A stretch of 35,692 nt of DNA, from NCBI GenBank assembly GCA_037439705.1, contig JBBIVP010000002.1:1-35692 (forward strand). The letters run 5' to 3'. The first letter of the stretch is position 1. Every line of letters begins with the position of its first letter. The translations under genes and the position numbers were made by a program. Positions 502 through 29,541 of this stretch are shown here, one piece after another. This DNA is from a bacterium (GTDB taxonomy: Bacteria; JBBIVP01). The notes under the pieces were generated by a model that worked only from the letters and a program-made list of their open reading frames with translations, was not told the origin of the DNA and searched no databases.

Positions 502-1801
502 TTTTTACCTCCTTTATTTCTATATCTAATTTTTTAGTTTTTTCTAATGGAGGAACTATTGCGATTTCAAATCCCAATTTTTTTGCTTCTAAAAGTCTCT
601 TTTCAGTTCCTGCAACCCTTCTTACTTCTCCTGTGAGCCCTATTTCCCCGAAGGCAACAATTTTTGGACCTATCTTTTTGTTTTTCAAACTGGATATAAC
701 TGCGAGAAGCACAGGCAGGTCAGCAGAAGGGTCTTTGATGAAAATTCCTCCAACAACATTAACAAATACATCCCTTGTTTTAAGGTCAACTCCAAGCTTG
801 TTCTCTAAAACTGCTAAAAGTATTGAAACCCTGTTATAATCAACTCCCATAGAAACCCTTCGTGGTGTTCCAAAAGGGGTGTATGAGGTTAAAGCCTGGA
901 TTTCAAGAAAAAAAACCCTGTTCCCCTCAATGTGAGGAAAAGCCACGCTTCCAGGACTATCAAGTGTGCTTTCTGAAATGAAAAAGGAAGATGTATTTTT
1001 TACCTCCCTTAATCCTCCTTCTTCCATCTCAAAAATTCCAACTTCATTTGTTGAGCCAAAACGATTTTTTATGCTTCTCAAAATCCTTAATGAAGTATGT
1101 CTTTCTCCTTCAAGGTAAAGAACTGTATCAACTATGTGTTCTACAAGTCTTGGTCCGGCTATAATTCCCTCCTTTGTGACATGAGCAAGAAAAAAACCAG
1201 ATATTCCGTTCATTTTACAGAATCTGGTAAGCCTTTGTGTTACCTCTTTCAACTGTGAAGGGGTTCCGGGAAGGGATGGAATTTCTGATATTTTCATTGT
1301 TTGAAGCGAATCAAAGATGGCAACAGATGGGTTTATTTTTTCAAGTCCTTCCTCCACTACTTCCACTTCAGTTTCTGAAGAAAAAAATACATTTTCACCT
1401 GAAAAACCTATTCTCTTTGCTCTCATCTTTATCTGAGTGAGTGATTCCTCTCCGCTCACATACAAAACCTTTTTTCCCCTTTTGCTGAATGCATCTGCAA
1501 TCTGAAGCATAAGCGTTGATTTCCCAATTCCAGGTTCTCCTCCAACCAGAACCTGAGTTCCCACTACCAGCCCTCCACCCATTACCCTGTCAAACTCTTC
1601 AATCTCTGTTTTTGTTCTTTCTTCCTTCTCTCCCTCCAGTTCAGAAAACATTTTTATCGTCATAGTACTTTTCTTTTTTTTCTCTTTTTTCACCTCCATT
1701 TCCCTGAATGTATCCCATTCCTCACACTGAGGACACCTACCTAACCATTTGGGAGTTGTATAACCGCAGACCTCACATATAAATACATTTTTTTTCTTCA
1801 C
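467..1801 (-). CDS. radA: DNA repair protein RadA/Sms
   Basis: N-terminal CxxC...CxxC zinc finger (CEVCGY...CPQC), Walker A GEPGIGKST, KNRFG motif, and a Lon-protease-like C-terminal domain. Confidence 0.95.
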   Translation of the reverse strand: MKKKNVFICEVCGYTTPKWLGRCPQCEEWDTFREMEVKKEKKKKSTMTIKMFSELEGEKEERTKTEIEEFDRVMGGGLVVGTQVLVGGEPGIGKSTLMLQIADAFSKRGKKVLYVSGEESLTQIKMRAKRIGFSGENVFFSSETEVEVVEEGLEKINPSVAIFDSLQTMKISEIPSLPGTPSQLKEVTQRLTRFCKMNGISGFFLAHVTKEGIIAGPRLVEHIVDTVLYLEGERHTSLRILRSIKNRFGSTNEVGIFEMEEGGLREVKNTSSFFISESTLDSPGSVAFPHIEGNRVFFLEIQALTSYTPFGTPRRVSMGVDYNRVSILLAVLENKLGVDLKTRDVFVNVVGGIFIKDPSADLPVLLAVISSLKNKKIGPKIVAFGEIGLTGEVRRVAGTEKRLLEAKKLGFEIAIVPPLEKTKKLDIEIKEVKNVQEAVEFVFG

Positions 1802-2766
1802 AGTTGAACTATTGTTCTTTTTAAAACTCTTTTTTTGAGGTGGACTGGCATATTCAGTAAATCGTCTATTTTCTGGAGCAATTTTTCCTTTTCCTCCGGA
1901 AGTTTTCCATTGAGGTCTATGTAGTTTGACACATGGTCTGTTAAAAATTCAGATGTTACATCAAGATTTTCTATCAGAAGTTTTAATTCTTTCATAATAG
2001 TTTCAGGAGATGCCTCTACGAAATCTCCGCTTTCCATCTTTTCATAAAGAGGAGTAAACGGAAGCAGGACAAGTGTTCTGATTCTTATGAAATGAGGATT
2101 TATTTTATTGAGTGCGTCCGCAGTATTTTGTGCATGTTCCATCCACCTCTTTTCTCCACCAAGACCGCTTATCACATATTCGCTCAACTCAAATCCTGCA
2201 TCTTTTGCTTTAAGTCCAGCCTCAACTGCTTCTGAAGACCTTACTCCCTTTTTAACATATTCCAGTATGAAATCATCTCCACTTTCAAGTCCTACATGAA
2301 GCCTTGTGAGTCCTGCTTCTCTTATTGCTTTTAAATCCTCAAATTTTTTATTCAGTATTGTTCTTGACCTTGCATAACTTGTAATCCTCTGAACCACTGG
2401 AAATTTTTTCTTTATGTACTTTATAATTTCAATCAAAACATATGGTTTAATGACAAGGCTGTCCGAATCTCCTATGAAAACATTTTTCACCTCTCCCTGA
2501 AGAAGCCACGGTATTCCGAGAGCAGAACCTATGTACCTGACATCTCCGCCGTAACCCTTGAGCCATGCCATTTCCTTAGCCCTTTCATAGATTTCCCTAA
2601 AAGAATCAATGTCCCTTTTTATTTCTTCTATCTCTCTCATTTGGAATTTTACAGTTTTGTACATTCCGCAGAACTCACATCTGTTCCAAGGGCAGTTTCT
2701 TGTTACTCTTATCAGCAAGCTGTATGCTTCCGATGGCGGTCTGAATGGCGGAAGTTCAAAGGTCAT
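1798..2766 (-). CDS. Radical SAM protein (no B12 domain), unknown substrate
   Basis: Cys triad CPWNRCEFCGMY near the N-terminus. Downstream GDSD, GLESG and similar strand motifs are typical of the radical SAM TIM barrel. 4-nt overlap with the radA start; 2-nt gap after the upstream surface-protein gene. Confidence 0.8.
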   Translation of the reverse strand: MTFELPPFRPPSEAYSLLIRVTRNCPWNRCEFCGMYKTVKFQMREIEEIKRDIDSFREIYERAKEMAWLKGYGGDVRYIGSALGIPWLLQGEVKNVFIGDSDSLVIKPYVLIEIIKYIKKKFPVVQRITSYARSRTILNKKFEDLKAIREAGLTRLHVGLESGDDFILEYVKKGVRSSEAVEAGLKAKDAGFELSEYVISGLGGEKRWMEHAQNTADALNKINPHFIRIRTLVLLPFTPLYEKMESGDFVEASPETIMKELKLLIENLDVTSEFLTDHVSNYIDLNGKLPEEKEKLLQKIDDLLNMPVHLKKRVLKRTIVQL

Positions 2767-2768
2767 TT

Positions 2769-4412
2769 TCAGAAATCAAATACTATTCCTACATAAAGGT
2801 TTTTGCTTGTGAAATCCCACCTTTCAAACCTTTCACCGAAGGGATAGGATTTTCTGTTTATTCTCTGAACGATATATTCGGCGTAGATGCCCGTGTAGTT
2901 CACTCCGAAGTCTTCGTCCATCTTGCTCGCATGCTTTTTGTCAATAAAGTCAAGGACTAAAATAAGCCCTCCTCCGTAGTGGTAGCCTCCCGCAACTCCT
3001 TTTTCGGGAGTTTTTCCATCAACGATTTTTTCCATAAAGAAGACCCAGTCAAATCCTCCCCTTCCGTAGGGAATAAGGGGCTGGTCTTTTATGAATTCAA
3101 GCCTGTAGAAGGAACTCAATCGTAACGGAAAGATGTAGAAGATATGGTCCCTTGCAGAGGATTCAACACTTCCGTTTTCTATCACCTGTCCGTAACCCTT
3201 TTCCCTGAAGAATCCTCCCCTTAAAGATATACCGAGAACCCCAAAGTACTTGTACTTGAGAAATTCCCAACCAACTTCACCCTCAACCAGAAAGTGTCCT
3301 CCGCTTCCATATATTTCATCCCAGTGATACGAACTCAATTTGTCCGGATGATAATTCGTTCCTGAAATGCTTACTGTCCAGTGCCTCGGAGATTCTGAAA
3401 ACGCATTATCAACAAGGAGAAATATTGCCAGAGGGATAAAGATGGATTTTTTTCTTAAAAAGATAAAAGGGAGCAGGAACATGACGAGAAGTATTCTGTC
3501 ATCAAAAAGGAGAAAGATAATTTTAAAAATCCCTTTTATAAAAGAGGGCAATCCATTAACCAGGTGGAATAGAGTTTTGTAATAAAATTGAAGGATTTTT
3601 GCACCCAGAGGAAGTTTTTTCAGACCATCCCTTATCACCCTCAGAATCTCATATCTCCCGTGAGGATTAAGGGTTGTTATTACACATCCACCTTCTTCAT
3701 CCACAAAATCACTCACCCCCATTGTCTCATACGGAGTACCTTCTATTTCAGTAGATAATGGACTCGTCATATCGCTGTAATCAACAGCTCTAATTGAAAG
3801 GAAATACCTCTTTCCGTTTTCCAGATCGGAGAGAGTATAAGAAGTGGCTTCTCCAGAATTAACATCCACTTCATGAAGGTATAAGTCTAAACTCGGAGAT
3901 GTAACAGGTGAATCCGAATTTTCCGCTTCTCTCCAGTAAATTTCAAACCTCTTTATGTCCCTGTCAGGATGTTTGTCCCAGGAAAGAAATAAAACAGAAT
4001 TTCCCCCTTTTGCTTCAAAACCATAAGGAGTATCAGGAATATCGTCAAGGGTTATAGTGATATTTGTTTTGATTACATCTCCTCCTTCAGAAAGAGTAAT
4101 GTATATGTAAATGTTGTAGTCTCCATCTCCTTCTTTAAAGTCTTCCCATGGTTTTATTTTTGTAGAGACATAAGTATTTGAACTTATGTTTCCTTCAGGA
4201 TTTTCCGAGATTTCCTCTCCTGTTCCAATTTCTCCAGTTCCTCCAACCTCAATCTTATATTTTCCTGGGGTGTCTGATTTCCATTTTATTGTTATCTCCT
4301 GGCTTTCTGTAACTGTGCTTGAAGGGGTTATTTCTTCAACCGTGATTGTTGCTGGAAATCCGTTTTTTACTAAAAGAAACGCTATAAATATTGAAAATAA
4401 AATTTTCTTCAT
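2769..4412 (-). CDS. Composite surface protein: signal peptide + FN3-like module + Gly-Gly-Cys box/helical anchor + second signal-like segment + porin-like beta-barrel ending in Phe
   Basis: N-terminal signal peptide MKKILFSIFIAFLLVKNGFPA. FN3-like block PDTPYGFEAKGGNSVLFLSWD...YFLSIRAVD. GGC at aa 241-243 (Cys codon 3684..3686), followed by EILRVIRDGL...LQFYYKT and hydrophobic helices. KKSIFIPLAIFLLVDNAFS-E looks like a second signal peptide. The C-terminal ~210 aa show alternating aromatic/Gly-rich beta-strand patterns and end ...YVGIVFDF. Confidence 0.7.
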   Translation of the reverse strand: MKKILFSIFIAFLLVKNGFPATITVEEITPSSTVTESQEITIKWKSDTPGKYKIEVGGTGEIGTGEEISENPEGNISSNTYVSTKIKPWEDFKEGDGDYNIYIYITLSEGGDVIKTNITITLDDIPDTPYGFEAKGGNSVLFLSWDKHPDRDIKRFEIYWREAENSDSPVTSPSLDLYLHEVDVNSGEATSYTLSDLENGKRYFLSIRAVDYSDMTSPLSTEIEGTPYETMGVSDFVDEEGGCVITTLNPHGRYEILRVIRDGLKKLPLGAKILQFYYKTLFHLVNGLPSFIKGIFKIIFLLFDDRILLVMFLLPFIFLRKKSIFIPLAIFLLVDNAFSESPRHWTVSISGTNYHPDKLSSYHWDEIYGSGGHFLVEGEVGWEFLKYKYFGVLGISLRGGFFREKGYGQVIENGSVESSARDHIFYIFPLRLSSFYRLEFIKDQPLIPYGRGGFDWVFFMEKIVDGKTPEKGVAGGYHYGGGLILVLDFIDKKHASKMDEDFGVNYTGIYAEYIVQRINRKSYPFGERFERWDFTSKNLYVGIVFDF

Positions 4413-6620: not shown

Positions 6621-6866
6621 ATGAAGCTGGACCTGAAAGCCACTGCTTTAGCGGGCGGGATACTCTGGGGTTTAACGGTTTTTTTAGCAACCATATGGAT
6701 AGTAATAAAAGGTGGTGGGTTAACCCTCATGAAACTATCCCAGTTTTATATAGGTTATTCGGTCAGCATCCCTGGAGCATTCATAGGTGGAATTTACGGA
6801 TTTTTTCACGGATTTATCGCTTGCCTCATTTTTGCCCTTCTCTATAACCTTTTTGTGAAGGGTTAG
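6621..6866 (+). CDS. Small integral membrane protein (about 3 TM segments), unknown function
   Basis: Strong Shine-Dalgarno AAAGGAGG. The 81-aa product is almost entirely hydrophobic and Gly-rich helices. Its stop codon overlaps the convergent cytochrome gene stop (TTAG at 6863..6866). Confidence 0.6.
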   Translation: MKLDLKATALAGGILWGLTVFLATIWIVIKGGGLTLMKLSQFYIGYSVSIPGAFIGGIYGFFHGFIACLIFALLYNLFVKG

Positions 6867-7975
6867 AAACTGAACCCCTTTCCAAAGTGGGTTAAAAGGT
6901 CGTATGAATGCTGATATAAAAGAAGGTCTTTGTTTCTTTCAGAAAATGGTAAGAGGTCTGTGTCATAAATTCCTTTGAGAACGGGAAGGGTTTTTAAAAG
7001 ATAGTCTTCAGCCATTTCCAGATTTTTTTCAAGTTCGTTAATTTTATCTTCAAAAAATTTCTTCGTATGACAGTTCATACAGAGGTTTTTTAGTACCTCC
7101 TTTCTTTTGTTCAGAAGTTCCTGCGACTGCTCAACAGGAATTTTTTTATCAGGGAGTAAAGAAATTCCCCTTTTTGCCAGTCTCAAAATTTTAAATGAAA
7201 ATTCTTTATGAAGTCCAACCGTATGACTTCCATTCACCATGTGGCAGGTTACACAAACAGGCGAATCGGGATTTGATGAGGCAGGAAGTAATAAAGAGGG
7301 CTTCCAGCCTTCAATTTTTAATTCCCAGTTCCATCTATCTTCCATTGCCTTAAAAATGGTTCCATGGGATGAGGACAGAAAGTAATAATAAACCCTTTTT
7401 TCATTTCCATCGTGGCAACGGGCACAGGTTTCAGGTCTTCTTGCAGAAGAGGTAGAATAGGTATGAGGAATGTGGCAGGAAGAACAGGCATTTTTTTCTT
7501 TTCCGATGGAATGGCAAGAAGAACATGTATCTTTCATTTCTAAATTCAGCAACTTTACCGCAAGCTCCAGATTTCTCATAGCTGATGAGTGAATTCCATT
7601 TTCAAACTCCTCAAATTGTTTTTTGTGGCATCTCTTGCATGTGTGAAATGATACAGACCTTTTTACCTTTTTGTCCTCGCATTCCGTTTTTTCAGATAAA
7701 ATCTCCTCACCTGATTCTCTTGCAGGAAGATGGCATTCATTACATCCAACTCCCTTTTCTCCGTGCTTGCTTTTCTTCCATCCTGTTATGGAGATTTTTG
7801 ATAACCCCCTTTCCGTATGACACTCATAACATGCCATTGATTCTGCTGAAATATAAGGCTCCGGAACCCTTCCCTTTCTTCTTTGAACCTCAATGCTTCC
7901 TACGATTATGAGTGCAATCAGCATCAAAACCGCAAGGATCCCTGTTACCACCCTTTCATAGGTATAGTCCTTCAT
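6863..7975 (-). CDS. Membrane-anchored octahaem c-type cytochrome
   Basis: N-terminal TM helix plus eight CxxCH motifs: CYECH, CNECH, CKRCH, CSSCH, CSSCH, CARCH, CVTCH, CMNCH. Last gene of the Rieske/cyt b operon. Confidence 0.85.
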   Translation of the reverse strand: MKDYTYERVVTGILAVLMLIALIIVGSIEVQRRKGRVPEPYISAESMACYECHTERGLSKISITGWKKSKHGEKGVGCNECHLPARESGEEILSEKTECEDKKVKRSVSFHTCKRCHKKQFEEFENGIHSSAMRNLELAVKLLNLEMKDTCSSCHSIGKEKNACSSCHIPHTYSTSSARRPETCARCHDGNEKRVYYYFLSSSHGTIFKAMEDRWNWELKIEGWKPSLLLPASSNPDSPVCVTCHMVNGSHTVGLHKEFSFKILRLAKRGISLLPDKKIPVEQSQELLNKRKEVLKNLCMNCHTKKFFEDKINELEKNLEMAEDYLLKTLPVLKGIYDTDLLPFSERNKDLLLYQHSYDLLTHFGKGFSF

Positions 7976-7984
7976 ATTCCCTCC

Positions 7985-8995
7985 TTAATCCAATGATTCT
8001 TTAATTATCGCAAACACAAAATATAGTGTTAATAAAAATCCAGCAGTTCTCAATGCAAATGGAGCATATTTTCCTGCTACTTTTTCTGCCAGTTTTTCAA
8101 CATAAGGATAAAAAAGAAAAAGGAATATAAAAGCGGTAAGCATAATTATTCCCGCTTTGAGTGGAACGAGTTTTAAAAAGAAGTAAACCGGATAAAAATA
8201 CCATTCGGGTTTTATGTGAGAAGGAGTTCTAAAAGGATTGGCTCTTTCTCCAATTTCTGGTGGAAACATCAGGGATATGAGGGTGAGCGCTGTGAAGATA
8301 AATATAAATATGTTTACTTCTAAATAAAGGTGTTCCGGGATGAGGAGATATTTTTTTTCAGATTGAATGGAAACTCCATATTTTCTCACGAGAAGGATGT
8401 GAGTAAAAATAAAAATGGCAAGGAGAAGCGGAAGTATGTAAATATGAAGGGTAAATAGCCTCAATGTTGTGAACTGGCTTATTCTTTCCCCACCTTTTAT
8501 GAGCATTGAAAGGAATCTCCCTATAAGAGGGGCAGATTCCACGAGTTCTGTTCCAACCCGTGTAGCCCAGTAGGAAAGCTGGTCGTGAATGAGGGAATAC
8601 CCTGTAAAACCTGCTCCAAGAGACAGAAATAACATTATCCCTCCTGTAATCCATGTGAATTCTCTTGGGGATGAATACGCCCTTGTTACGAATGTTCTTA
8701 TGAGGTGAAGGAATATGGAAAATATAAAAATTGTCGCTCCGTATTTGTGAAGCCCCCTTATCCACCATCCCATAGAAACCGTATATGTTATTCTTCCTAC
8801 GCTTTCGTATGCTGAATCATAATATGGAACATAATAGATTAAAAGAAAAATTCCTGTAAGAACCTGAAGAAAAAACAGAAAAAAAGGGGTTCCTCCGAGG
8901 GCGTAAAAGAAATTTTTTAACTCCTCAGGTAGGTCTTCGTTGAGGAATTGAAAACTATTCTTCCTCATAAAATCCAACCTCAATGTAAATTCCAT
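7985..8995 (-). CDS. Cytochrome b, b6-like with fused subunit-IV-like C-terminal part (Rieske/cyt b complex)
   Basis: Helix B H-x13-H (HKYGATIFIFSIFLH) and helix D H-x14-H (HIYILPLLLAIFIFTH) are b6-type spacings. PEWYFYP is the Qo-site motif. The start is uncertain: GGAGG abuts the ATG at 8995, so the ATG at 8968 (MRKNSF...) is an alternative. Confidence 0.88.
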   Translation of the reverse strand: MEFTLRLDFMRKNSFQFLNEDLPEELKNFFYALGGTPFFLFFLQVLTGIFLLIYYVPYYDSAYESVGRITYTVSMGWWIRGLHKYGATIFIFSIFLHLIRTFVTRAYSSPREFTWITGGIMLFLSLGAGFTGYSLIHDQLSYWATRVGTELVESAPLIGRFLSMLIKGGERISQFTTLRLFTLHIYILPLLLAIFIFTHILLVRKYGVSIQSEKKYLLIPEHLYLEVNIFIFIFTALTLISLMFPPEIGERANPFRTPSHIKPEWYFYPVYFFLKLVPLKAGIIMLTAFIFLFLFYPYVEKLAEKVAGKYAPFALRTAGFLLTLYFVFAIIKESLD

Positions 8996-9389
8996 CCTCC
9001 TTTATCTCGGTGGTCAATTTTTTTAACGGAGAAGGAGCCGGTCCTGATAATACCTTTCCATTTTCATCAAAAATTGCTCCGTGGCAGGGGCATTTGAATT
9101 TTTTTTCAGAAGGATTCCATTCAACCCTGCAGCCCAGATGTGTGCAGGTGGAGGAGAATGTTTCTATTTTTTCTTTCCTTTTTATAAGGATAAGAACTTC
9201 GTCTTTAAATTTTATTTCTTTAAAGCCTTCTTCCAGTTCCGAAACCCTGCCCCCATAAATTACAACTTTTTCTCTTTTTGAGCTCCTTACGACATATCTT
9301 ATAAGGTTTTTAATTCCAAAAAATGAGCCGAAAAGGATGGAGAAATAAAGAAGTATTTTTGATAAAAAAAACCTTCTCTTTATTTTCAT
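8955..9389 (-). CDS. Rieske [2Fe-2S] protein with Tat signal
   Basis: CTHLGC...CPCHG cluster-binding boxes. N-terminal KRRFFLSK twin-arginine motif plus a hydrophobic helix. Confidence 0.9.
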   Translation of the reverse strand: MKIKRRFFLSKILLYFSILFGSFFGIKNLIRYVVRSSKREKVVIYGGRVSELEEGFKEIKFKDEVLILIKRKEKIETFSSTCTHLGCRVEWNPSEKKFKCPCHGAIFDENGKVLSGPAPSPLKKLTTEIKEDGIYIEVGFYEEE

Positions 9390-12127: not shown

Positions 12128-13528
12128 ATGAAGGTTCTCCTTATAAAACCGAGGTTCATAAAAAGAGCATTGAATGCGGCAACCCCTCCAATAGGGCTTG
12201 CCTATCTTGCTTCCTATTTGAGGGATAAGGAAAGATCAGCAAAAATAAAAATCCTTGATATGCTTTTTTGCGATGAGACCTACCTTGTAGAGGAAATAAA
12301 GAATTTTTCTCCTGATGTTGTAGGCATTAGCGCATTGACAATTGAGGCAGAGAATATGCACAGGGTAGCCCTTTTGACAAAAAGGATTTCAAGAAAGATA
12401 TTTGTCCTTGCAGGTGGTCCGCATCCAACCCTTTTCTCAAACGATGTCCTTTCAGATGGAAACATTGATTATGTAGTTAAAGGAGAAGGTGAAAGGACAT
12501 TTCATGAACTCCTTCTTTCACTATATGCAGGAAAGGAACCAATAGATGTTAAGTGAATTCTTTACAGGAAAAACGGTGAGATATTTTTTACAGGTGAGAG
12601 GGAGCCAATTTATGACCTTGACTCAATCCCATTTCCCGCATGGGAACTTCTTCCAGTTGAAAGGTATAGAAAATTAAAAAAATTCAGTGTAGTTCGCTCT
12701 GATTTCAAATACCTCCCAATTTTCACATCAAGAGCCTGCCCTTATGGATGTATATATTGCCACAGGATATTCGGAAGGGGGTTCAGGAAAAGAAGTCCTG
12801 AGAACCTTCTTTCAGAGATGGAGGAGTTCATAAAAAGGTTCGGGATTGAAAAGTTTGAGGTTATTGATGATATATTCAACCTTGATGAGGAAAGGGCAAG
12901 AATGATATGCGAGGGAATTATAAAAAGGGGATGGAAAATCCTTCTTTCATTTCCAAACGGTTTGAGGGGAGACAGGCTCTCTTTTGAAACACTCAAACTT
13001 ATGAAAGATGCTGGAACCTATTACATAAGTTTTGCAATTGAATCAGCATCAGAAAGGATTCAGAGATTGATAAAGAAGAACCTTGATGTTGAAAAGACAT
13101 TAAGGGCAATTGAATGGGCTGTGAATCTCCGAATATGGACGATGGGATACTTTATGCTCGGATTTCCAACAGAAACAGAGGAAGAGATAAAGAAAACAAT
13201 TGATTGTGCAAGAAAATCAAAACTTCACATAGCCCTGTTTTTTATAGTCACGCCTTTCAAGGGAACGGAACTCTATGAAACCTACATTCAGGATGCATAT
13301 ATCCCGTATTCGCACTATCATTATTACACAGACCATTACAACCTTTCAGCAGTTGATGGGAAAACCTTGAGGAAACTTTATAAATTTGCATACTGGAAAT
13401 TTTACTCATCACCTTTAAGGGCTTTCAGAATAATAAGGGATTATCCAACTAATAGATTCGGGATAATAAAGCAGTCCTTTTCCCTCTTTTTTGAAGGGCA
13501 AACTAATCCCGAGAAGACGAAATTTTAG
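12128..13528 (+). pseudogene. B12-binding-domain radical SAM enzyme interrupted by a single in-frame TGA (12554..12556); pseudogene, read-through/recoded gene, or sequence error
   Basis: Track fragments 12128..12556 and 12818..13528 are in the same frame (690 nt apart). The stretch between them translates without further stops as ILYRKNGEIFFTGEREPIYDLDSIPFPAWELL...TSRACPYGCIYCH, carrying the CxxxCxxC motif at 12737..12760. The N-terminal part has the B12-binding Rossmann pattern (DVVGISALT, AGGPHPT). Confidence 0.8.
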
Positions 13529-14288
13529 GGCATCTTTTTGAATAAAAATACATAAGAATTGGAATCCATATAAAGAATATAATTATGCACAAAAACTGGG
13601 TTAACGAAAGGCTTCCAATTGCAGGTTTTCTGAATCTAATGAAGTCAAAGGAAAATCTCTGAACCGAAAGAAGAAGTGGTATCCACAAAGATGTCTCACC
13701 ATAGTATTTTTTGAATCTGTTCATAAAAATTGCAATAAATCCGAGAATGATTCCTCCGAATCCTTCATAAATTTGAACAGGATGGAGTTTCTGCCCGGGA
13801 AAGAAATATCCTGCAATGCTATTCTCTGGAAATTTTACCCCCCATGGAAGGTCTGTTGGAAGACCGAAGCAACAGCCTGTTAAGAAACATCCGAAAATTT
13901 TCATAAATGCATAGCCAAAGAAGACGACGGGTGTGAATTCATCGTAGAACCTCCACAGGTTCTCGGTCTTTTTTCTCAAATAAAAAAGTGAAAGGGTTCC
14001 GCCCATGAGGATTATCCCTGGAAATGAATTCCCCCACATTATATACCTTTCAATTGAAGATGGCTCTTCAATTATCCTTCCAATTTTTGAGATTATGAAA
14101 ATCACCCTCCATCCTATAACCCCCGCTACGAATGTTATCATTGAAAAATTTATATAAACCTCTTTTGATATACCCATTCTTTCAGTCAAAAAATATCCTC
14201 CAAGGATTATGCCAATTGCAGTTAAACAAAGAGCTAAATGATATGTATGGATTATGAAATCTCCCCTCTCAAAGAGGTGGGGTAGCAA
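13503..14288 (-). CDS. lgt: Prolipoprotein diacylglyceryl transferase (Lgt) family protein, divergent
   Basis: Polytopic membrane protein with HPVQIYE (Lgt HPxQLYE signature), WGNSFPG (cf. GGMSFHGG), GCFLTGCCFG central motif and QRFSFDFIRFRKP (cf. FRxxxEFFRxPD). Starts 3 nt after the PA14 gene stop. Converges on the rSAM gene with a 26-nt overlap. Confidence 0.75.
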   Translation of the reverse strand: MLPHLFERGDFIIHTYHLALCLTAIGIILGGYFLTERMGISKEVYINFSMITFVAGVIGWRVIFIISKIGRIIEEPSSIERYIMWGNSFPGIILMGGTLSLFYLRKKTENLWRFYDEFTPVVFFGYAFMKIFGCFLTGCCFGLPTDLPWGVKFPENSIAGYFFPGQKLHPVQIYEGFGGIILGFIAIFMNRFKKYYGETSLWIPLLLSVQRFSFDFIRFRKPAIGSLSLTQFLCIIIFFIWIPILMYFYSKRCPKISSSRD

Positions 14289-14291
14289 AAC

Positions 14292-15479
14292 CTATCTTCT
14301 CTTAAATTTTGTTCTTAAAAGAAGTGAAATGATGAAGATGAGTGGAATAATGAGAAGTATATCCGTTCTTTTGAAGCCTGTTGAAATACATCCACCACCT
14401 GCAATCATTCCTGGAGAGGTTGGATTGCATGCCTTCTCAGATAATGCAAGGTATCTTTCAGGAATGGGAGTAATTGCAGTTCCTGGATTGCTGTCGCAAT
14501 TTGCTCCCCCTAAAGTGGTTGAGCCCAATTCAGCGACTGCATTTCCCTGTGTCTCAAAGAACTCAAGGACAAGGAGGTGAAGACCAGGGGTTAGTGATAG
14601 ACTTATTGGTGGTGTCTCCATTGTTGTATCTGTGGAGTTTACATTCCAGTTACTGAATACAACTCCGTCATCAACTATAAATCTTATAGCATCATTGTAC
14701 CTGATACAGAAGTTATATGTTCCAGCGGTAGGAATTACAACATTTCCACTCCACCGGACCGAGAAATAATCATAAGGCATTCCTGATGGATATGATGGAG
14801 CATTTGTCCCCCAGTTGTAACCAACATTGTTATCATACCATATTCCTTTCAGGGATGTGAACTCTCCAGGTGATGCATCCGTGTAGTATTCTCCCCTTAA
14901 TCCAGGCATATATATCAATGTTACAGGAAATGGATAATCCTCATTTCCGCATGTTCCATTTCCTGTTCCTGCTCTATCCAGCCCGAACCATGCAGTTGCT
15001 CCACTTGTTGTCTCACAGTATTGAACCTCTATAAGGTGATAACCAGCGGATAGGCTTATATTAACATAACAATGGCTCGGACCTTTGTCCCTCCAGCAAT
15101 CGCTTCCATCTGAAAGCCTGTATTCAGTCCCATCAACGAACATCCTCACCCCATCATCCGTATAGGCGCAGAACCTATATGTTCCACTTGTTGAAACATT
15201 GAACAATCCCTTCCACCAAACTCCAAAATAATCTGCCTGTCCAGCAAGTCCTGGATAGCCACTCCCCCAGTTAAACTGGATATTATCATCTGTCTGTTTT
15301 CCTCTTAAGTTCCATGTCCACCCTGTTCCTGTGCATGTTCCAGAAGAGCCTGAGAGTGTATAATACTCTCCCTTCCATGTGTTTATGTAGTCCCTGTATT
15401 CGCAGTTTCCAACAACATACTTTGCTGAATAACAATAACTTGGAATAAGAAGCCCTATCAATACAACTATTCTCTTCAT
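14292..15479 (-). CDS. Secreted protein with two PA14 domains and a C-terminal Cys / TM / basic tripartite tail
   Basis: Signal peptide MKRIVVLIGLLIPSYCYSA. Two PA14-like blocks: ...DYFGVWWKG...GTYRFCAYTDDGVRMFVDG... and ...DYFSVRWSG...GTYNFCIRYNDAIRFIVDD.... The tail is IAGGGC (Cys codon 14388..14390) followed by ISTGFKRTDILLIIPLIFIISLLLRTKFKRR. Confidence 0.8.
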   Translation of the reverse strand: MKRIVVLIGLLIPSYCYSAKYVVGNCEYRDYINTWKGEYYTLSGSSGTCTGTGWTWNLRGKQTDDNIQFNWGSGYPGLAGQADYFGVWWKGLFNVSTSGTYRFCAYTDDGVRMFVDGTEYRLSDGSDCWRDKGPSHCYVNISLSAGYHLIEVQYCETTSGATAWFGLDRAGTGNGTCGNEDYPFPVTLIYMPGLRGEYYTDASPGEFTSLKGIWYDNNVGYNWGTNAPSYPSGMPYDYFSVRWSGNVVIPTAGTYNFCIRYNDAIRFIVDDGVVFSNWNVNSTDTTMETPPISLSLTPGLHLLVLEFFETQGNAVAELGSTTLGGANCDSNPGTAITPIPERYLALSEKACNPTSPGMIAGGGCISTGFKRTDILLIIPLIFIISLLLRTKFKRR

Positions 15480-16690
15480 GCCTCACCCCTCTTCAAAATA
15501 ATTCTTATAAAAACTGCTGTAATAAAGACCATTAAAACTGGATAGATGAGGAAGTTTCCTTTAGAATAATTGCAACCAAACATACCACCGCCTCCTCCTT
15601 CTGTTGATGGCTCACCTCCACCGCATTCCTCATCTATCATAACCATATTAACAGGTGGAATTGGTTGAACAACGCCATTTCCAGGGGTTGATGGAAGGGA
15701 ACCATCGCAGTAATTTGCTCCTGATTGTCCAGGCAAGTTCCATCCAAGAACTATCCGCGCAGCACCTCCTCCTTCATAGTATTCCAGAAGGAATGCATGA
15801 GGACCCCTTGTCAAACTAACATTATTTGAAGACCATTCAGTAGAACTCTGAGTTATCCACTTGTCAATAAGGAGTTCAAGTTCTCCATCATCATTCGTAT
15901 CAAGGTAGAACCGAACCCCGTCATCTGATACAGTGCAGAACCTGTATGTTCCATCAGATGGTGCAATTATCATTCCTGTGAAGCGAACAGAAAAATTATC
16001 AACAAGCCCAACGCATCCACCCTCTGTTGTTGTATCCCAGAATGGATATTCAGCTGATGGAAATGTTATGATGTATGCATATCTGTAGAAGGAAAGGGAA
16101 TTGAAGTTCGTTCCAGAATAAACCTTCATCCTCACACCCTGAGCCATAAATCTATCATAGGGGAGTGGATATACCTTTCCTGGTGGGGCTGGTTGGTTCC
16201 ATCCAAATGTAGCACTTGCAGAAGCTGACTGTTCATAGTAATCAAGAAGTAATAAATGATAACCGAGGGATGGGCTCACTGTGACGCTACACTCTGTTGC
16301 CCCTTTATCCCTCCAGCAATTTGAGCCATCTGAAAATGTCATCAGTGTTCCATCTAAATACCCCCTCACCCCATCATCAGTTGTTCCGTAAAAGGTATGA
16401 GAGCCACTTCCATAAAATACAGCCCTCCACCTTATTGCAAACTCATTAATTTTGTCAAGTAGTGCATAAGGACCTTCACCCCATACTTAGGCTATTGATG
16501 CAGGCCATAGTCTCTGGGCTGTAAGGTTGGCTGGTTGAATAGGATTAACGCCCGGAGCGTCACCTGAATATGAATACCCCTCCTCCACATAACCAAGAAC
16601 AAGGTTTTTGTATTCGCAATCACCAGCAGTAAAGGAAAAGCTATTTTTCACAAAAAAGAGAACAATTCCTATCAAAAATACCCTTTTCAT
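15476..16690 (-). pseudogene. Paralogous two-PA14-domain secreted protein with the same C-terminal tail type, interrupted by one in-frame TAA (16487..16489)
   Basis: Track fragments 16487..16690 (signal peptide + GDCEY...) and 15476..16369 are in the same frame. The 117 nt between them translate VWGEGPYALLDKINEFAIRWRAVFYGSGSHTFYGTTDDGVR, completing the first PA14 domain. The tail is GGGGGMFGC (Cys codon 15572..15574) plus 31 aa (TM helix, KRGEA). ATGA overlap with the next PA14 gene. Confidence 0.75.
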
Positions 16691-16716: not shown

Positions 16717-16745
16717 ATTATACCCCAATTTTTAGGAATTGTCAA
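16717..16745 (-). promoter_or_regulatory. Consensus sigma70 promoter of the PA14-PA14-lgt operon
   Basis: Reverse strand: TTGACA (16745..16740) - 17 nt - TATAAT (16722..16717), then GGAGG (16700..16696) and the ATG at 16690. Confidence 0.55.
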
Positions 16746-19045: not shown

Positions 19046-19618
19046 ATGAAGCCTTCTTCTATGAAAAGAGCATACTGTCCAAGCTGTGGAGAAGAGGTTG
19101 ATGTATTCGTTATGATTGCTGGTGGAGAGGAAAGACCACATTGTTCACAGTGCGGTCTCCTTCTGGATGAGAAATCATTAGAAGAAAAAAAAAGAACACT
19201 TGAAAATGTATTCATTGCAGAGGATTCCTATTCTCTAAGAAGTGCCCTGTCAGAAATCCTCATTTCAAGAAAAATTGCAAAAAATGTGATTGAAGCAGGA
19301 GATGGAAGGGAATTTCTCGCAAAGGTAACAGAGGCTTTCAAGAAAGATATGAATGTAAGCCTTGCTATACTTGATGTAAACATGCCAAATATTGATGGAA
19401 TAAATGCTGCAAAAACTCTTAGAGTCCTTGAAGACGGTTTCAGAAGGAATTCAAGAATACCAATACTATTCTTTTCCGTAGTCCCATGCGATGAAAACTT
19501 CAAGAAATTCCTCCAGCTTTTAACACCTTCTGCCTACCTCAACAAGGGTAAGGAAGGAACTCCTGAAAAACTTGCTGAAAGGGTTTATCAGATAATAAAG
19601 AGACTCCTTGAAAAATGA
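19046..19618 (+). CDS. Single-domain response regulator (CheY-like receiver) with an N-terminal zinc ribbon
   Basis: CPSCGEE...CSQCG ribbon. The receiver has FIAEDS, LAILDVNMPNIDG (phospho-Asp), ILFFSV and YLNKG (conserved Lys). No output domain. Confidence 0.8.
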   Translation: MKPSSMKRAYCPSCGEEVDVFVMIAGGEERPHCSQCGLLLDEKSLEEKKRTLENVFIAEDSYSLRSALSEILISRKIAKNVIEAGDGREFLAKVTEAFKKDMNVSLAILDVNMPNIDGINAAKTLRVLEDGFRRNSRIPILFFSVVPCDENFKKFLQLLTPSAYLNKGKEGTPEKLAERVYQIIKRLLEK

Positions 19619-20247
19619 AAAAACTAATTTTAATTTTTCTTTTGATTTCTTCCACACTCCATGCGGACAAAAAAAAGTCTCCCGAAGAACTGTACAATGA
19701 AGGGGTCAAGAGATTAAGCGGAGGTGCTTTCAGGGAAGACCCTGACAGAGCCATTGAGATTTTCAGAGAAATAATGGAACTGTATCCTGAAAGTGAGTAT
19801 GCGGTCCTTGCGGAAATAGGAATAGGAGATGCCTATTACAAAAAAAAGGAATACCTTTCAGCAGTGGAAATTTATAAAGGATTTTATGAGAAAAGACCCG
19901 ACTACCAAAATGCGGATTACATTCTCTTCAGAATAGGCGAGTGCTTTTACAAACTCACACCTTCTTATGACAGAGACATTACGCCTGCACATCATGGAAT
20001 TCTCTATCTGAATACGCTCATAAAAAAATACCCTGCATCAATATATAGAGAAAAGGCTGAGAAGATGATAAAAGACCTCAAAAACAAAATAGCAAAAAGG
20101 GAACTCATGATTGGAGAATTTTACCTAAAAAGAGGTGACCTGGGTTCAGCAAAAAAACATTTTGAAAGCCTTCTTGAAGTTGCTGATGACCCTTTACTCA
20201 AAGAAAAGGCGGAAAGATATCTAAAAAGAATAAGTGAGGAAAAGTAG
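19615..20247 (+). CDS. bamD: BamD/YfiO-like TPR protein (outer membrane protein assembly factor)
   Basis: Signal peptide, then the BamD-like TPR pattern: ELYNEG...AIEIFREIMELYPESEYA...AYYKKKEY..., DRDITPA..., LIKKYPASIYREKA..., IGEFYLKRGDLGSA. No lipobox Cys, so the symbol is tentative. Confidence 0.65.
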   Translation: MKKLILIFLLISSTLHADKKKSPEELYNEGVKRLSGGAFREDPDRAIEIFREIMELYPESEYAVLAEIGIGDAYYKKKEYLSAVEIYKGFYEKRPDYQNADYILFRIGECFYKLTPSYDRDITPAHHGILYLNTLIKKYPASIYREKAEKMIKDLKNKIAKRELMIGEFYLKRGDLGSAKKHFESLLEVADDPLLKEKAERYLKRISEEK

Positions 20248-27582: not shown

Positions 27583-28225
27583 TTTTTTTTAAAGCGGAAA
27601 TGATTCCGGAATAAACTTCTTCCGGTAATCCTGAACCATCAATTCTCAAAAGCTGGTTCCTTCTGGTGTAATAATCTATAAGCGGAGCAGTCTTCTCTCT
27701 GTAAACCCTTAATCGTTCTCTTATCACATCTTCCTTGTCATCATCCCTTTGGTAAAGAGTACCACCACATTCACATATACCGTCCTTTGGTGGTGGGCTT
27801 GTTTCTAAATGGTATATCCTGCCACATTTAGAACAAACCCTTCTTTTTGAATTCCTTCTTATTACTTCGTTATCAGAAACATCTATAAATAAAACTACTG
27901 TATCCATATTTTTAGCATTCAACATTCTTTCAAGAGACATAGCCTGTGCCTCCGTTCGCGGAAACCCATCAAGGATACATCCGTTCATACAATCATCTCT
28001 ATTCAATCTATCCTCAATTATTCCTATGACCACATCATCAGGAACAAGCTCACCTTTTGACATATATTCATTTGCTTTGATACCGAGGAGTGTCTTCTCT
28101 TTTACTGCGGTTCTCAATATATCACCTGTTGAAATGTATGGAACTCCAAAAAATTCTGAAACCTTAACCGCCTGCGTGCCCTTTCCAGCTCCAGGTGGTC
28201 CAAGAAATATAATGGCTTTTCTCAT
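27569..28225 (-). CDS. adk: Adenylate kinase (zinc-lid type)
   Basis: [12 protein letters not shown]-loop. Lid with CSKCGRIYH...CECGG. Confidence 0.95.
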
Positions 28226-29541
28226 CTGAAAACCCTTCTCCCTTTAAGTTTTGCCCCTTTAACAAATCCCTCATAATTCCTCATTATAAGATGGGATTCT
28301 ATTTGCTGGGCTGTGTCAAGAGCAACACCAACTGCTATGAGAAGACCTGTTCCACCAAATCGGAAAGGAACATTGAATTCGGCATAAAGAATGGAAGGTA
28401 ATATGCAGATAATCACGAGATATATAGCGCCTCCAAGGGTTATCCTTGAAAGGACCCAATCAATATATTCGGAGGTATTCTTTCCAGGTCTTATTCCTGG
28501 AATAAATCCTCCATATTTTTGAAGGTTTTCAGCAACATCCACAGGATTAAAAATGATAGCAGTGTAAAAATAAGCAAAGAAAATTATCAAAATAGCATAA
28601 AGAATATTATAAATTGCTCCTGTTGGAAGTAGCATATCATAAATCCTTTTTAACCATGAAACATCAGCAATACTTGATATGGTCAATGGGAACATAAGAA
28701 GGGCTGACGCAAATATGGGGGGAATAACACCAGATGTATTAACCTTTAATGGAAGATGGGTGAGCTGACCTCCATAAACCTTTCTTCCAACAACCCTTTT
28801 GGCATACTGTACTGGAATCCTTCTGTGCCCCCTTTCAACGAAAATTATTGCTCCAACCACAGCCACTACAATCAACAAAACCATAAGGAGAACAAAAAGG
28901 AACATTTCGCCTGTTCTTACGAGCTTAAAGGTTCTCACTATCGCTCCAGGAAGTCTGTCAACTATTCCAGCATATATTATAAGTGAAATACCATTTCCTA
29001 TTCCCCTTTCTGTAATCTGCTCTCCAAGCCACATAAGAAATATGGTTCCTGTTGTCATCGTTATCATGGCCATCATTCTGAATTTAAAACCCGGGTTTAA
29101 TACCACCGGCATATCACCTGGCCCCTTCATTCCCTCAAGACTTATCGCAATAAATATGGATTGAATCATGGCAAGGAAAACGGTGCCATATCTGGTATAT
29201 TGATTCATCTTCCTCCTGCCGAGTTCTCCTTCTTTTTTTAACCTTTCAACCGCAGGGAAAACTGCTGTGAGAAGCTCCATTATAATCGCTGAACTTATAT
29301 ATGGCATCACCCCGAGAGAAAAAATTGAAAGCTGTTCAAGTGCTCCTCCAGAAAACAGATTTATAAGTCCGAAAATGGTCCCCTCTGCACTTTGAAAAAA
29401 CTGCCTTATTACTTCCACATCAACTCCTGGAGTTGGAACAAATATACCCACTCTATAAACCGCAAGAAGCCCAAGAGTTATCAGAAGCTTCTTTCTAAGT
29501 TCAGGAATTCTCGGGATGTTTAAAAAACCCCTATCTAACAT
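28222..29541 (-). CDS. secY: Preprotein translocase subunit SecY
   Basis: 10-TM SecY pattern ([17 protein letters not shown]...). ATGA overlap with adk. Confidence 0.95.

Follow-up and report, generated by a model that had tools for sequence, protein, structure and literature searches.

Gene organization of the locus

The window, i.e., the whole 35,692-nucleotide stretch of DNA that was analyzed, carries a promoter and three closely chained genes. The features are as follows.

16717..16745, reverse strand: sigma-70-type promoter TTGACA-17-TATAAT, matching the consensus at 12 of 12 positions and preceding the three genes
15476..16690, reverse strand: PA14-A, made up of a signal peptide, two PA14 domains and, at its C-terminus, a Cys-type tail; an in-frame TAA interrupts it here
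16487..16489, reverse strand: early TAA stop in PA14-A (codon 68), relative to the orthologues
15479..15634, reverse strand: PA14-A tail, ECGGGEPSTEGGGGGMFG-C373 (codon 15574..15572), spacer NYSKGN, Pro-containing helix, KRGEA
14292..15479, reverse strand: PA14-B, 395 aa, intact, made up of a signal peptide, two PA14 domains and, at its C-terminus, a Cys-type tail (Pfam, AlphaFold, fold match)
14295..14432, reverse strand: PA14-B tail, EKAC351-NPTSPGMIAGGG-C364 (codon 14390..14388), spacer ISTGFKRTD, Pro-containing helix, RTKFKRR
13503..14288, reverse strand: divergent Lgt-family transferase, 261 aa, TTG start at 14288 (PF01790, AlphaFold)

The PA14-A ATG is preceded by a GGAGG ribosome-binding site. 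The stop of PA14-A and the start of PA14-B overlap by 4 nt (15476-15479), and a gap of 3 nt separates PA14-B from the Lgt gene. This chaining and the promoter, which was the sole perfect match in a consensus scan of the region, had been reported in an earlier note on this DNA, and both were recovered. The observation made in that note was largely real, with its layout, promoter, domains and tails upheld, but the stop in PA14-A had been overlooked and its statements on motifs and on an FN3 protein did not hold. The GGC box of the FN3 protein (2769..4412), which had been described as followed by helices, was rejected as a C-terminal tail; the Cys is internal (Cys243 of 547 residues), with an outer-membrane beta-barrel after it.

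PA14-A and PA14-B were collinear paralogues (31% identity, E 2e-47), and Pfam assigned two PA14 stretches both to PA14-B and to intact PA14-A orthologues, which agrees with the paralogous double-PA14 pair proposed before. The AlphaFold model of PA14-B contained two beta-sandwiches (pLDDT 79.7), and its best structural match was the RsgI sensor 6QE7, a tandem PA14 structure (E 1e-17). The earlier account of the PA14-A gene, domains and tail was correct except for the in-frame TAA. Codon 68 encodes Tyr in four orthologues and is TAT or TAC in the three that were aligned as DNA. Moreover, the window PA14-A lacks three otherwise conserved Cys residues (Cys46, Cys51 and Cys205). The PA14-A orthologues are intact, with lengths of 379-408 aa.

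Conservation of the three-gene unit

The trio and its promoter were found on seven metagenomic contigs (the window, L001, L002, L003, L009, L094 and L095). The upstream neighbours were of five kinds (a 657-aa secreted protein, MetRS, MutL, TrmD and an aldolase-like gene) and the downstream neighbours of four (a radical SAM gene, CoaX, a DUF3089 lipoprotein and SerRS). Because the flanking genes differed in this way, the trio was regarded as the conserved unit. The 4-nt overlap between the PA14 genes and a gap of 0-3 nt before the Lgt gene were present in all seven contigs. The -35 element, spacing and -10 element were kept in the window, L001, L002, L009 and L095, and the DNA farther upstream was unrelated. 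These results support the view that the three genes are a conserved block with translational coupling, whose promoter stays with it when the flanking genes are exchanged. The identity between the window and L002 was 76-79% for the trio genes and 51-77% for the shared neighbours; hence, the trio was vertically inherited under constraint. The association of PA14 and Lgt genes was limited to one narrow lineage (seven contigs, Lgt identities of 54-85%), and a genome of this lineage was not found among the GTDB representatives.

Anatomy of the C-terminal tails

In both window proteins, a Gly run ending in Cys (GGGGGMFGC in PA14-A and IAGGGC in PA14-B) is followed by 31 residues with a helix and a basic end, so that the tripartite tail described earlier was present in each. 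According to the alignment of the seven contigs, all 14 tails shared the tail Cys, a short spacer, a helix with Pro and basic residues; outside these common elements, the A and B tails were dissimilar. The distance of exactly 31 residues after the Cys held for 12 of the 14, and the most divergent contig had 27 and 29. GG-Cys was given as kept in the 14 tails, but the only strictly invariant residue before the Cys was Gly at -1. The likeness to a lipobox put forward in the earlier note is therefore weak, and the label "inverted lipobox" was discarded as too strong, since no lipobox precedes the tail Cys. The invariant tail residues of the seven PA14-B orthologues were G362, G363, C364, L376, P379 and R389.

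In the AlphaFold model of PA14-B, residues 353-374 were disordered and residues 371-394 were helical, placing the tail Cys in a disordered juxtamembrane linker (pLDDT <50) directly before the helix. The Cys count of the folded ectodomain was even (10 or 12) in six of seven B orthologues and four of five A orthologues, and the tail Cys would usually be the unpaired odd Cys, as judged from sequence. A second conserved Cys (EKAC, EEC) lies 11-16 residues upstream. When all ORFs in ~100 kb of lineage DNA were scanned for the tail pattern, matches occurred only in the PA14 pairs. The tails look like modification sites. They are members of an established class, the C-terminal sorting signals with a Cys of the MYXO-/JDVT-CTERM-like kind, although no tail exceeded any cut-off of the published sorting models and the best score of the window tails was 10.6 bits (Synerg-CTERM). 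The L003 A tail matched JDVT-CTERM end to end with 23.6 bits against a cut-off of 27; the MYXO-CTERM-type analogy drawn earlier was apt, without a score that reached this threshold.

The divergent Lgt-family gene

The Lgt gene matched PF01790 over its full length with 93.6 bits, as expected from its earlier assignment to this family, and scored under every NCBIfam lgt equivalog cut-off. The term K-type denotes the replacement of Arg143 by Lys130 together with a one-residue insertion. The K-type clade reached 91-103 Pfam bits, whereas ordinary Lgts from many phyla reached 183-262. The AlphaFold model had a pLDDT of 93, and its only PDB match was E. coli Lgt 5AZB (TM 0.73). Mapped on E. coli Lgt, the residues Y26, R73, G99, G104, D129, G154, R239 and R246 were retained. 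At R143 (Lys and insertion) and G27, none of the 25 comparison Lgts agreed with the clade, and at G98, G105 and G142 hardly any did. When 1.84 billion representatives were searched exhaustively with HMMER, only one further K-type relative (P0068) emerged, and the clade had no GTDB match. By its sequence and fold, this homologue looks like an active but unusual enzyme of a tiny clade.

The divergence claimed in the earlier note was borne out by a score about half that of ordinary Lgts, but not by the motifs cited for it. GCFLTGCCFG is identical in P0006, the nearest ordinary Lgt, which is encoded beside lspA; the N146 position is Cys in 23 of the 25 comparison Lgts outside the clade, and the full GC...GCC is found in 22. 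In FDFIRF the only change is Asp for E243; both R239 and R246 are still there. On the related contig L093, two K-type genes stand in tandem and PA14 genes are absent. Hence, the clade forms paralogues and is not strictly tied to PA14 proteins.

Possible lipidation of the tail Cys

The analysis shows how the genes are organized and conserved, how the tails are built, that the enzyme has the Lgt fold and that most of its key residues are retained. The reading favoured here, tentatively but as a serious possibility, is that the Lgt-family enzyme lipidates the tail Cys of both PA14 proteins. Together, the promoter and the three genes would constitute a self-contained surface-display module. The paralogous tandem-PA14 proteins, which are putative carbohydrate binders, would leave the cell via Sec, and the C-terminal helix would anchor each in the inner membrane with its basic end in the cytoplasm. 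Each protein would then expose one free Cys on a flexible linker rich in Gly, at 6-9 residues from the membrane on its outer side. We infer that the co-translated divergent Lgt acts on these tails, using a membrane phospholipid as donor and attaching its diacylglyceryl group, or a related lipid, to the Cys thiol. The helix may subsequently be cut off by an intramembrane protease encoded at another locus, such as a CPBP-type "myxosortase". The product would be a C-terminally lipid-anchored PA14 protein, which a type II secretion system could carry to the cell surface; a type II secretion gene of the lineage, GspL, lies on L001.

The interpretation in the earlier note was of this kind and was partly supported: the conserved unit, the invariant Cys, the divergent Lgt and the MYXO-CTERM analogy persisted, but its motif evidence and the inverted lipobox did not, and the dedicated Lgt paralogue that it proposed is no more than a candidate. 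Several features argue against lipidation. The tail Cys has no lipobox ahead of it, the chain crosses the membrane in the direction opposite to that of a signal peptide, and 6-9 partly charged residues lie between the Cys and the helix. The association is confined to one narrow lineage, which also has classical lipoboxes that call for an Lgt; the K-type genes of L093 stand without PA14 genes, and ~130 kb of sampled DNA contained no CPBP, rhomboid or exosortase-like gene. Moreover, the Lgt could be the only one of the organism and stand beside the PA14 genes for unrelated reasons.

This last point leads to a somewhat unlikely alternative, in which the gene is the housekeeping Lgt of a deep-branching, poorly sampled lineage, it came to lie behind two abundant surface-protein genes through operon history or because of a strong promoter, and not because the enzyme is specific for these substrates, and the MYXO-/JDVT-CTERM-like tails are handled by general machinery elsewhere. 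The lineage is rare, since its SecY had at best 63% identity to any GTDB representative, and the family is poorly conserved between phyla (25-36% among ordinary Lgts). Lipoboxes of the classical N-terminal type (IFSC, VLSC) are present in the lineage and require some Lgt, and no canonical lgt or lspA was present in the sampled loci. P0006, the nearest outside relative, is canonical and lspA-linked with the same GCFLTGCCFG. In addition, a MYXO-CTERM protein was processed in E. coli once MrtX alone was added (PMC11980579), an indication that a general enzyme can be enough. However, the Pfam score was about half that of ordinary Lgts while the SecY of the same organism was not unusually divergent, and the universally conserved R143 was replaced next to an insertion. 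The trio and promoter outlasted at least five rearrangements exactly at their borders, which is unexpected for a gene serving every lipoprotein, and K-type paralogues exist (L093).

It is improbable that the tails are plain type-I membrane anchors whose juxtamembrane Cys pair forms an interchain disulfide in a membrane-bound A-B heterodimer, with nothing lipidated or cleaved and the Lgt unrelated. Each paralogue has exactly one odd Cys at an equivalent position, at 31 residues from the C-terminus in A and B of five genomes, and the translational coupling of the two genes suggests equal protein amounts. The additional upstream Cys and the lack of a nearby processing protease (no CPBP, rhomboid or exosortase-like gene in ~130 kb of sampled lineage DNA) are also consistent with such a dimer, but the strict linkage to Lgt is left unexplained. 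The Gly run, Cys, Pro-helix and basic cluster at the extreme C-terminus are the signature of a sorting signal, and the L003 A tail is close to the JDVT-CTERM threshold. A helix-breaking Pro in the membrane segment, invariant here, is typical for intramembrane-protease substrates (Haft preprint). Furthermore, PA14-B and its tail are intact in the window despite the interruption of PA14-A.

Comparison with known systems

PA14-B shares two PA14 beta-sandwiches, an extracytoplasmic location and a membrane tether with the RsgI-type tandem PA14 carbohydrate sensors (6QE7/6QDI) and with PA14 adhesin lectins (MpIBP, Epa, Flo), at a sequence identity of ~22%. In contrast to these, the anchor is C-terminal with a cytoplasmic end of only 5-7 residues; hence, there is no anti-sigma or signalling domain.

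The Lgt has the seven-helix fold of E. coli Lgt (5AZB/5AZC; PF01790) in the short-head form of many non-proteobacterial Lgts. It differs from the E. coli enzyme by G27 to His, G98 to Trp, G105 to Ile, G142 to Met and R143 to Lys with a one-residue insertion, and its gene does not adjoin lspA. Its operon partners offer only C-terminal candidate Cys residues in reversed membrane orientation.

Second copies of lgt occur in about 1,300 genomes; plasmid copies are encoded with their own substrate T4SS lipoproteins, and a divergent accessory subgroup lacks R143/R239 (PMC13251419). The Lgt here is likewise a divergent family member beside likely clients with an altered phosphate-binding Arg, although R239 is kept. 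Paralogues occur in the K-type clade as well (L093), whereas the present gene is only a candidate second copy. The known accessory Lgts are associated with lipoproteins that have N-terminal lipoboxes; here, the neighbours combine ordinary signal peptides for signal peptidase I with a Cys tail at the C-terminus.

The PA14 tails are built like MYXO-/JDVT-CTERM-like signals: Sec-exported surface proteins end in a signature motif that contains an unvarying Cys, then a transmembrane helix and finally a cluster of basic residues. The conserved Pro inside the helix recurs in Synerg-CTERM and JDVT-CTERM. They differ by GG(G)C and a spacer of 6-9 residues, without DP or GCGC. No lipidating enzyme has yet been assigned to Cys-type C-terminal signals, and Lgt is the leading candidate (PMC11980579; Haft preprint). 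The linkage of the trio makes this long-suspected Lgt-type lipidation directly testable. Like the two-gene JDVT-CTERM/MrtJ cassettes, the PA14/Lgt unit combines few substrates with an adjoining candidate processing gene, which is here an Lgt-family transferase rather than a CPBP protease.

Organization and Conservation of the Cassette

The gene order around the Lgt-family gene was evaluated in the window and on related metagenomic contigs. The cassette comprised PA14-A and PA14-B, which encode paralogous exported proteins with Cys-type C-terminal tails, and the Lgt-family gene itself.

Promoter and genes of the cassette in the window
16745..16717, minus strand: sigma-70 promoter, TTGACA-17-TATAAT, a perfect match to the consensus
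16690..15476, minus strand: PA14-A, preceded by a GGAGG ribosome-binding site
15479..14292, minus strand: PA14-B, with an ATGA overlap with PA14-A
14288..13503, minus strand: Lgt-family gene, with a TTG start three bases after PA14-B

The consensus promoter and the chained genes reported in the earlier note, with the ATGA overlap and the 3-nt gap, were all seen. Six further contigs found by protein and DNA searches carried this trio in identical order (L001, L002, L003, L009, L094, and L095; L009 is the same contig as L096). The two PA14 genes overlapped by 4 nt on every trio contig, and the gap between PA14-B and the Lgt-family gene was 0–3 nt on every one. The −35 element, the 17-nt spacer, the −10 element and the ribosome-binding site were conserved, and the DNA farther upstream was unrelated. 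The upstream neighbour was a gene for a 657-aa secreted protein in the window, MetRS on L002, MutL on L001 and L094, TrmD on L009, and an aldolase-like gene on L095. The downstream neighbour was a radical SAM gene in the window and on L002, CoaX on L001, L009, and L094, a DUF3089 lipoprotein gene on L095, and SerRS on L003. Identity between the window and L002 was 76–79% for the trio genes and 51–77% for the shared neighbours; hence, purifying selection has acted on a vertically inherited trio. A mobile element was rejected as the cause of its relocation, with no notable inverted or direct repeats flanking the trio. The Lgt-family gene converges on the radical SAM gene, their 3' ends overlapping by 26 nt (13503..13528), and neither gene had a detectable terminator-like hairpin.

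The reading placed first here, at nearly an even chance, is that the Lgt-family enzyme of the operon attaches a lipid to the tail Cys in both PA14 proteins, and that the helix is then possibly removed by an unlinked protease. Linkage of the genes, anatomy of the tails, and fold of the enzyme are shown, and the enzyme–substrate relation, the lipid, and the cleavage are inferred.

Family Membership and Divergence of the Lgt Homologue

The Lgt homologue belongs to the Lgt family. It matched PF01790 at 93.6 bits (cut-off 24.9) over residues 3–247 and profile positions 1–240, and its AlphaFold model (pLDDT 93) adopted the seven-helix Lgt fold. The sole significant PDB match of the model was E. coli Lgt (5AZB; E 2.3e-9, TM 0.73/0.68). 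The scores against the curated models were low, being 109.4 against a cut-off of 334 for NF000778 and 54 against 118.9 for TIGR00544, and thus fell below every NCBIfam lgt cut-off. The window gene and its orthologues formed a clade (the K-type) in which Lys and a one-residue insertion replace R143 (E. coli numbering). This clade scored 91–103 bits in Pfam, compared with 183–262 bits for ordinary Lgts from several phyla. Percent identity was rejected as a measure of its isolation, because the difference was only modest (19–30% from clade to ordinary Lgts vs. 25–36% among the ordinary ones, with one closer pair at 45%); the Pfam score was the clearer measure.

The E. coli-essential set compared consisted of Y26, G154, and R239, together with R246, G99, G104, and D129. 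All seven were kept in the window protein, as Y16, G142, R211, R218, G86, G91, and D116, respectively, and R73 was kept as well. E. coli G142-R143 corresponded to M129-K130 plus the one-residue insertion, and the signature motif was not matched at this point. In E. coli, R143 is an essential residue believed to position the phosphate of phosphatidylglycerol (PMC13251419), and Arg occupied this position in 25/25 comparison Lgts. Two changes were unique to the clade relative to these 25 ordinary sequences, namely R143 to Lys with the insertion and G27 to His. The changes G98 to Trp, G105 to Ile, and G142 to Met each occurred in no more than a few of them.

The motifs GCFLTGCCFG and FDFIRF, which had been read in the earlier note as signs of divergence, proved to be ordinary and were rejected as marks of specialization. 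The first was shared unchanged by P0006, an Lgt encoded directly after lspA and the closest one outside the clade. A Cys at the N146 position was present in 23 of the 25 comparison Lgts, and the full GC...GCC form in 22. Since N146C and E151C are common Lgt variants (PMC13251419), they are no argument against membership. In FDFIRF, R239 and R246 were retained and the sole change was E243 to Asp.

Distribution of the K-Type Clade and Its Lineage

When 1.84 billion representatives were searched exhaustively with HMMER, the clade scored 520 bits, P0068 197 bits, and ordinary Lgts no more than 134 bits. P0068 was the single intermediate relative, sharing the Lys-plus-insertion and WGNS features of the clade, and the ordinary Lgts below it formed a continuum. 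It was encoded on L093, a 4.6-kb contig free of PA14 genes, directly after a still more divergent Lys-type gene; the two tandem genes (1745–3331) scored 48.5 and 106.8 bits in Pfam. Paralogy within the clade was found on L093 only. This contig and L003 came from one sequencing run and had similar composition, which is weak evidence that L093 derives from the same lineage as the trio contigs. The L093 pair was flanked by genes for 4Fe-4S proteins and an FAD-dependent oxidoreductase, which by eye was possibly geranylgeranyl-reductase-like. The contexts of P0011 and P0040, two other divergent Lgt matches, contained no Cys-tail proteins.

The profile of the K-type clade had no match in the GTDB species representatives (r232). 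The best GTDB match of the window SecY (28222..29541) was 63% identical, and the closest sequences were from Binatia-like and 'Deltaproteobacteria' MAGs. The window proteins looked rich in Lys, Glu, and Ile, with a GC content of ~39–40%. A BamD/YfiO homologue (19615..20247, plus strand; Pfam YfiO, 103 bits) had a signal peptide and zero Cys. Such a protein would not be a lipoprotein in this organism, an unusual state for BamD. An apparent multihaem cytochrome c, a cytochrome b, and a Rieske protein were encoded consecutively beside a SurA/PpiD-like chaperone at 6863..9389 on the minus strand. These genes were identified by eye, and most of the block was syntenic with L002, whose Pfam annotation backs the last three.

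It is also conceivable, though unlikely, that the enzyme is the housekeeping Lgt of the lineage and that its linkage to the PA14 genes is incidental. No further lgt and no lspA were found in ~130 kb of lineage DNA. Some Lgt activity on N-terminal lipoboxes is required, since the classical lipoboxes IFSC and VLSC occur in the lineage. Against this alternative are the linkage of all three genes on seven contigs and the replacement of R143, which is Arg in every comparison Lgt. Two lgt copies are present in ~1,300 genomes, plasmid copies are encoded alongside client lipoproteins, and one Lgt subgroup is without R143 and R239 (PMC13251419).

Structure of the PA14 Proteins and Interruption of PA14-A

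The description in the earlier note of two paralogues with two PA14 domains each agreed with the domain, model, and alignment data. PA14-B matched PF07691 at 84.8 bits in two stretches, placing it in the PA14 family, and the intact PA14-A of L001 likewise contained two PA14 stretches (Pfam). The PA14-B model (AlphaFold; pLDDT 79.7) consisted of two beta-sandwiches. Its best structural match was the tandem-PA14 carbohydrate sensor RsgI (6QE7, E 1e-17), and further fold matches included the PA14 domain of MpIBP and the lectin domains of Epa adhesins. PA14-A and PA14-B were collinear, with 31% identity (E 2e-47).

PA14-A had been treated as intact; however, the window copy was interrupted at codon 68 by an in-frame TAA (16489..16487). 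Tyr occupied this codon in 4/4 intact orthologues; three of these were aligned as DNA and used TAT or TAC. The window PA14-A also lacked three Cys retained in its orthologues, and for this reason the stop may reflect genuine decay of the gene, not an error of sequencing. An in-frame TGA (12554..12556) split the B12-binding radical SAM gene (12128..13528, plus strand), and the intact 465-aa orthologue on L002 had Gly at this position. The two were single-base nonsense changes within 4 kb, and nonsense codons of this sort were found in no other window gene. Stop-codon reassignment was rejected, because the two codons differ (TAA at a Tyr and TGA at a Gly position) and because both serve as ordinary stops at the ends of other window genes.

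Anatomy of the C-Terminal Tails

Each window tail was built of a Gly run, the Cys, a spacer, a hydrophobic helix with a Pro, and basic residues. All 14 tails contained the signature motif, a transmembrane helix, and a basic extreme C-terminus. The GG-Cys, one helix Pro, and a basic residue beyond the helix were invariant in seven PA14-B and five PA14-A orthologues; the rest of the tail was unlike between A and B. In the PA14-B model, residues 353–374 were disordered and the terminal helix spanned 371–394. The tail Cys (Cys364) lay within the sole low-confidence stretch, 6–9 residues ahead of the helix.

The search for the tail pattern proposed in the earlier note was run over all ORFs in ~100 kb of lineage DNA; the tail was present on PA14 pairs and absent from the other ORFs. 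The PA14 pairs of L094 and L095 likewise carried it, with the GG-preceded Cys. It was found in 0/8 sequences read among the more distant PA14 homologues P0050–P0064. The FN3 protein (2769..4412, minus strand, 547 aa), whose GGC box followed by helices had been pointed out in the earlier note, was rejected as a third tail-bearing client. Its Cys243 is internal and is followed by a beta-barrel. In Myxococcus, the corresponding parts are encoded by two separate genes, which this ORF appears to fuse. Its FN3 region is related to the MXAN_2561 family, whose members are MYXO-CTERM-anchored; Cys243 then precedes, in order, a membrane segment, RKKS, a signal-peptide-like stretch (324–339), and an MXAN_2562-family outer-membrane beta-barrel.

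In 6/7 PA14-B and 4/5 PA14-A orthologues, the Cys count of the folded mature part was even (10 or 12). The tail Cys was the odd Cys in 10 of the 12 PA14 proteins, being left as the odd one because the other Cys were gained and lost as pairs. This pattern and the model fit a tail Cys that would be a free thiol at the outer face of the inner membrane. The tails could instead be plain anchors whose lone Cys forms a disulfide between PA14-A and PA14-B, which is regarded as distinctly improbable. An equal length after the Cys would suit such pairing, and exactly 31 residues followed the Cys in both window proteins. The earlier claim of a constant 31 residues held for this pair and for 12/14 tails, and it failed on the most divergent contig (27 and 29). 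Other explanations collectively retain a small probability.

Proposed Role and Relation to Known Sorting Signals

Returning to lipidation by the cassette's own enzyme, a stronger form of this reading is that the K-type Lgt is a dedicated transferase for a juxtamembrane C-terminal Cys, in an orientation opposite to that of a signal peptide; this is possible, but the balance leans against it. The phylogenetic base is narrow, with seven contigs from one lineage. If the K-type Lgt is such a dedicated transferase, it would be the first enzyme assigned to the 'missing' lipidation step of Cys-type C-terminal signals (MYXO-CTERM and relatives), and the Lgt fold would have been recruited for C-terminal protein lipidation. 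The R143-to-Lys-plus-insertion clade provides a defined variant among the little-understood divergent and second-copy Lgts.

A candidate for the cleaving enzyme was sought in the sampled DNA. No CPBP-like, rhomboid, or exosortase-like gene was found in ~130 kb of lineage DNA, PF02517 was absent from the precomputed annotations, and the EExxxR/FxxxH/HxxxN set was found in no multi-TM ORF of the window, L001–L003, L009, L093, L094, or L095. An M50 (site-2) protease was encoded on L095 (12477–13151), two genes downstream of the trio and after the DUF3089 lipoprotein gene; it was rejected as the cleaving enzyme, being near the trio in one context only.

Comparison with sorting-signal models, also proposed earlier, gave a near-match and no tail above a cut-off. 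The curated cut-offs of MYXO-CTERM (TIGR03901), JDVT-CTERM (NF033191), Synerg-CTERM (TIGR04564), CGP-CTERM, GlyGly-CTERM, and PEP-CTERM were reached by none of the tails. The PA14-A tail of L003 matched JDVT-CTERM end to end (23.6 bits, cut-off 27) and weakly matched the MYXO-CTERM end of a myxosortase-dependent protease. The only NCBIfam sorting-model match of the window tails was to Synerg-CTERM (10.6 bits, cut-off 22.5). The other seven tails had no match at E up to 10; HMMER filters may hide weaker ones.

Cys-type C-terminal signals, multiple or divergent lgt copies, and PA14 surface proteins are already known. In the literature, no prior account was found of a conserved Lgt-family cassette whose partner proteins carry their only candidate Cys in a C-terminal tripartite tail. 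Cys-type signals anchor dozens of myxobacterial surface proteins and occur in several other phyla, and the CPBP myxosortases that cleave them were identified in 2023–2025. Lgt has been offered as their Cys-modifying enzyme as a conjecture only, and the same source points out that a lipobox is missing and that the topology is inverted (PMC11980579). Haft assigned cleavage to the CPBP 'myxosortases' and stated that the Cys-modifying enzyme was unknown. With one strong promoter, two candidate client proteins, and one Lgt-family gene, the cassette makes the question of this enzyme testable by experiment, and it offers gene-neighbourhood evidence of the kind that identified MrtJ for JDVT-CTERM. Haft's class is defined by an invariant Cys, a helix, and an Arg-rich end, with the Pro within the helix conserved in JDVT- and Synerg-CTERM; the tails described here are alike in architecture, with a Cys, a Pro-containing helix, and a basic end.
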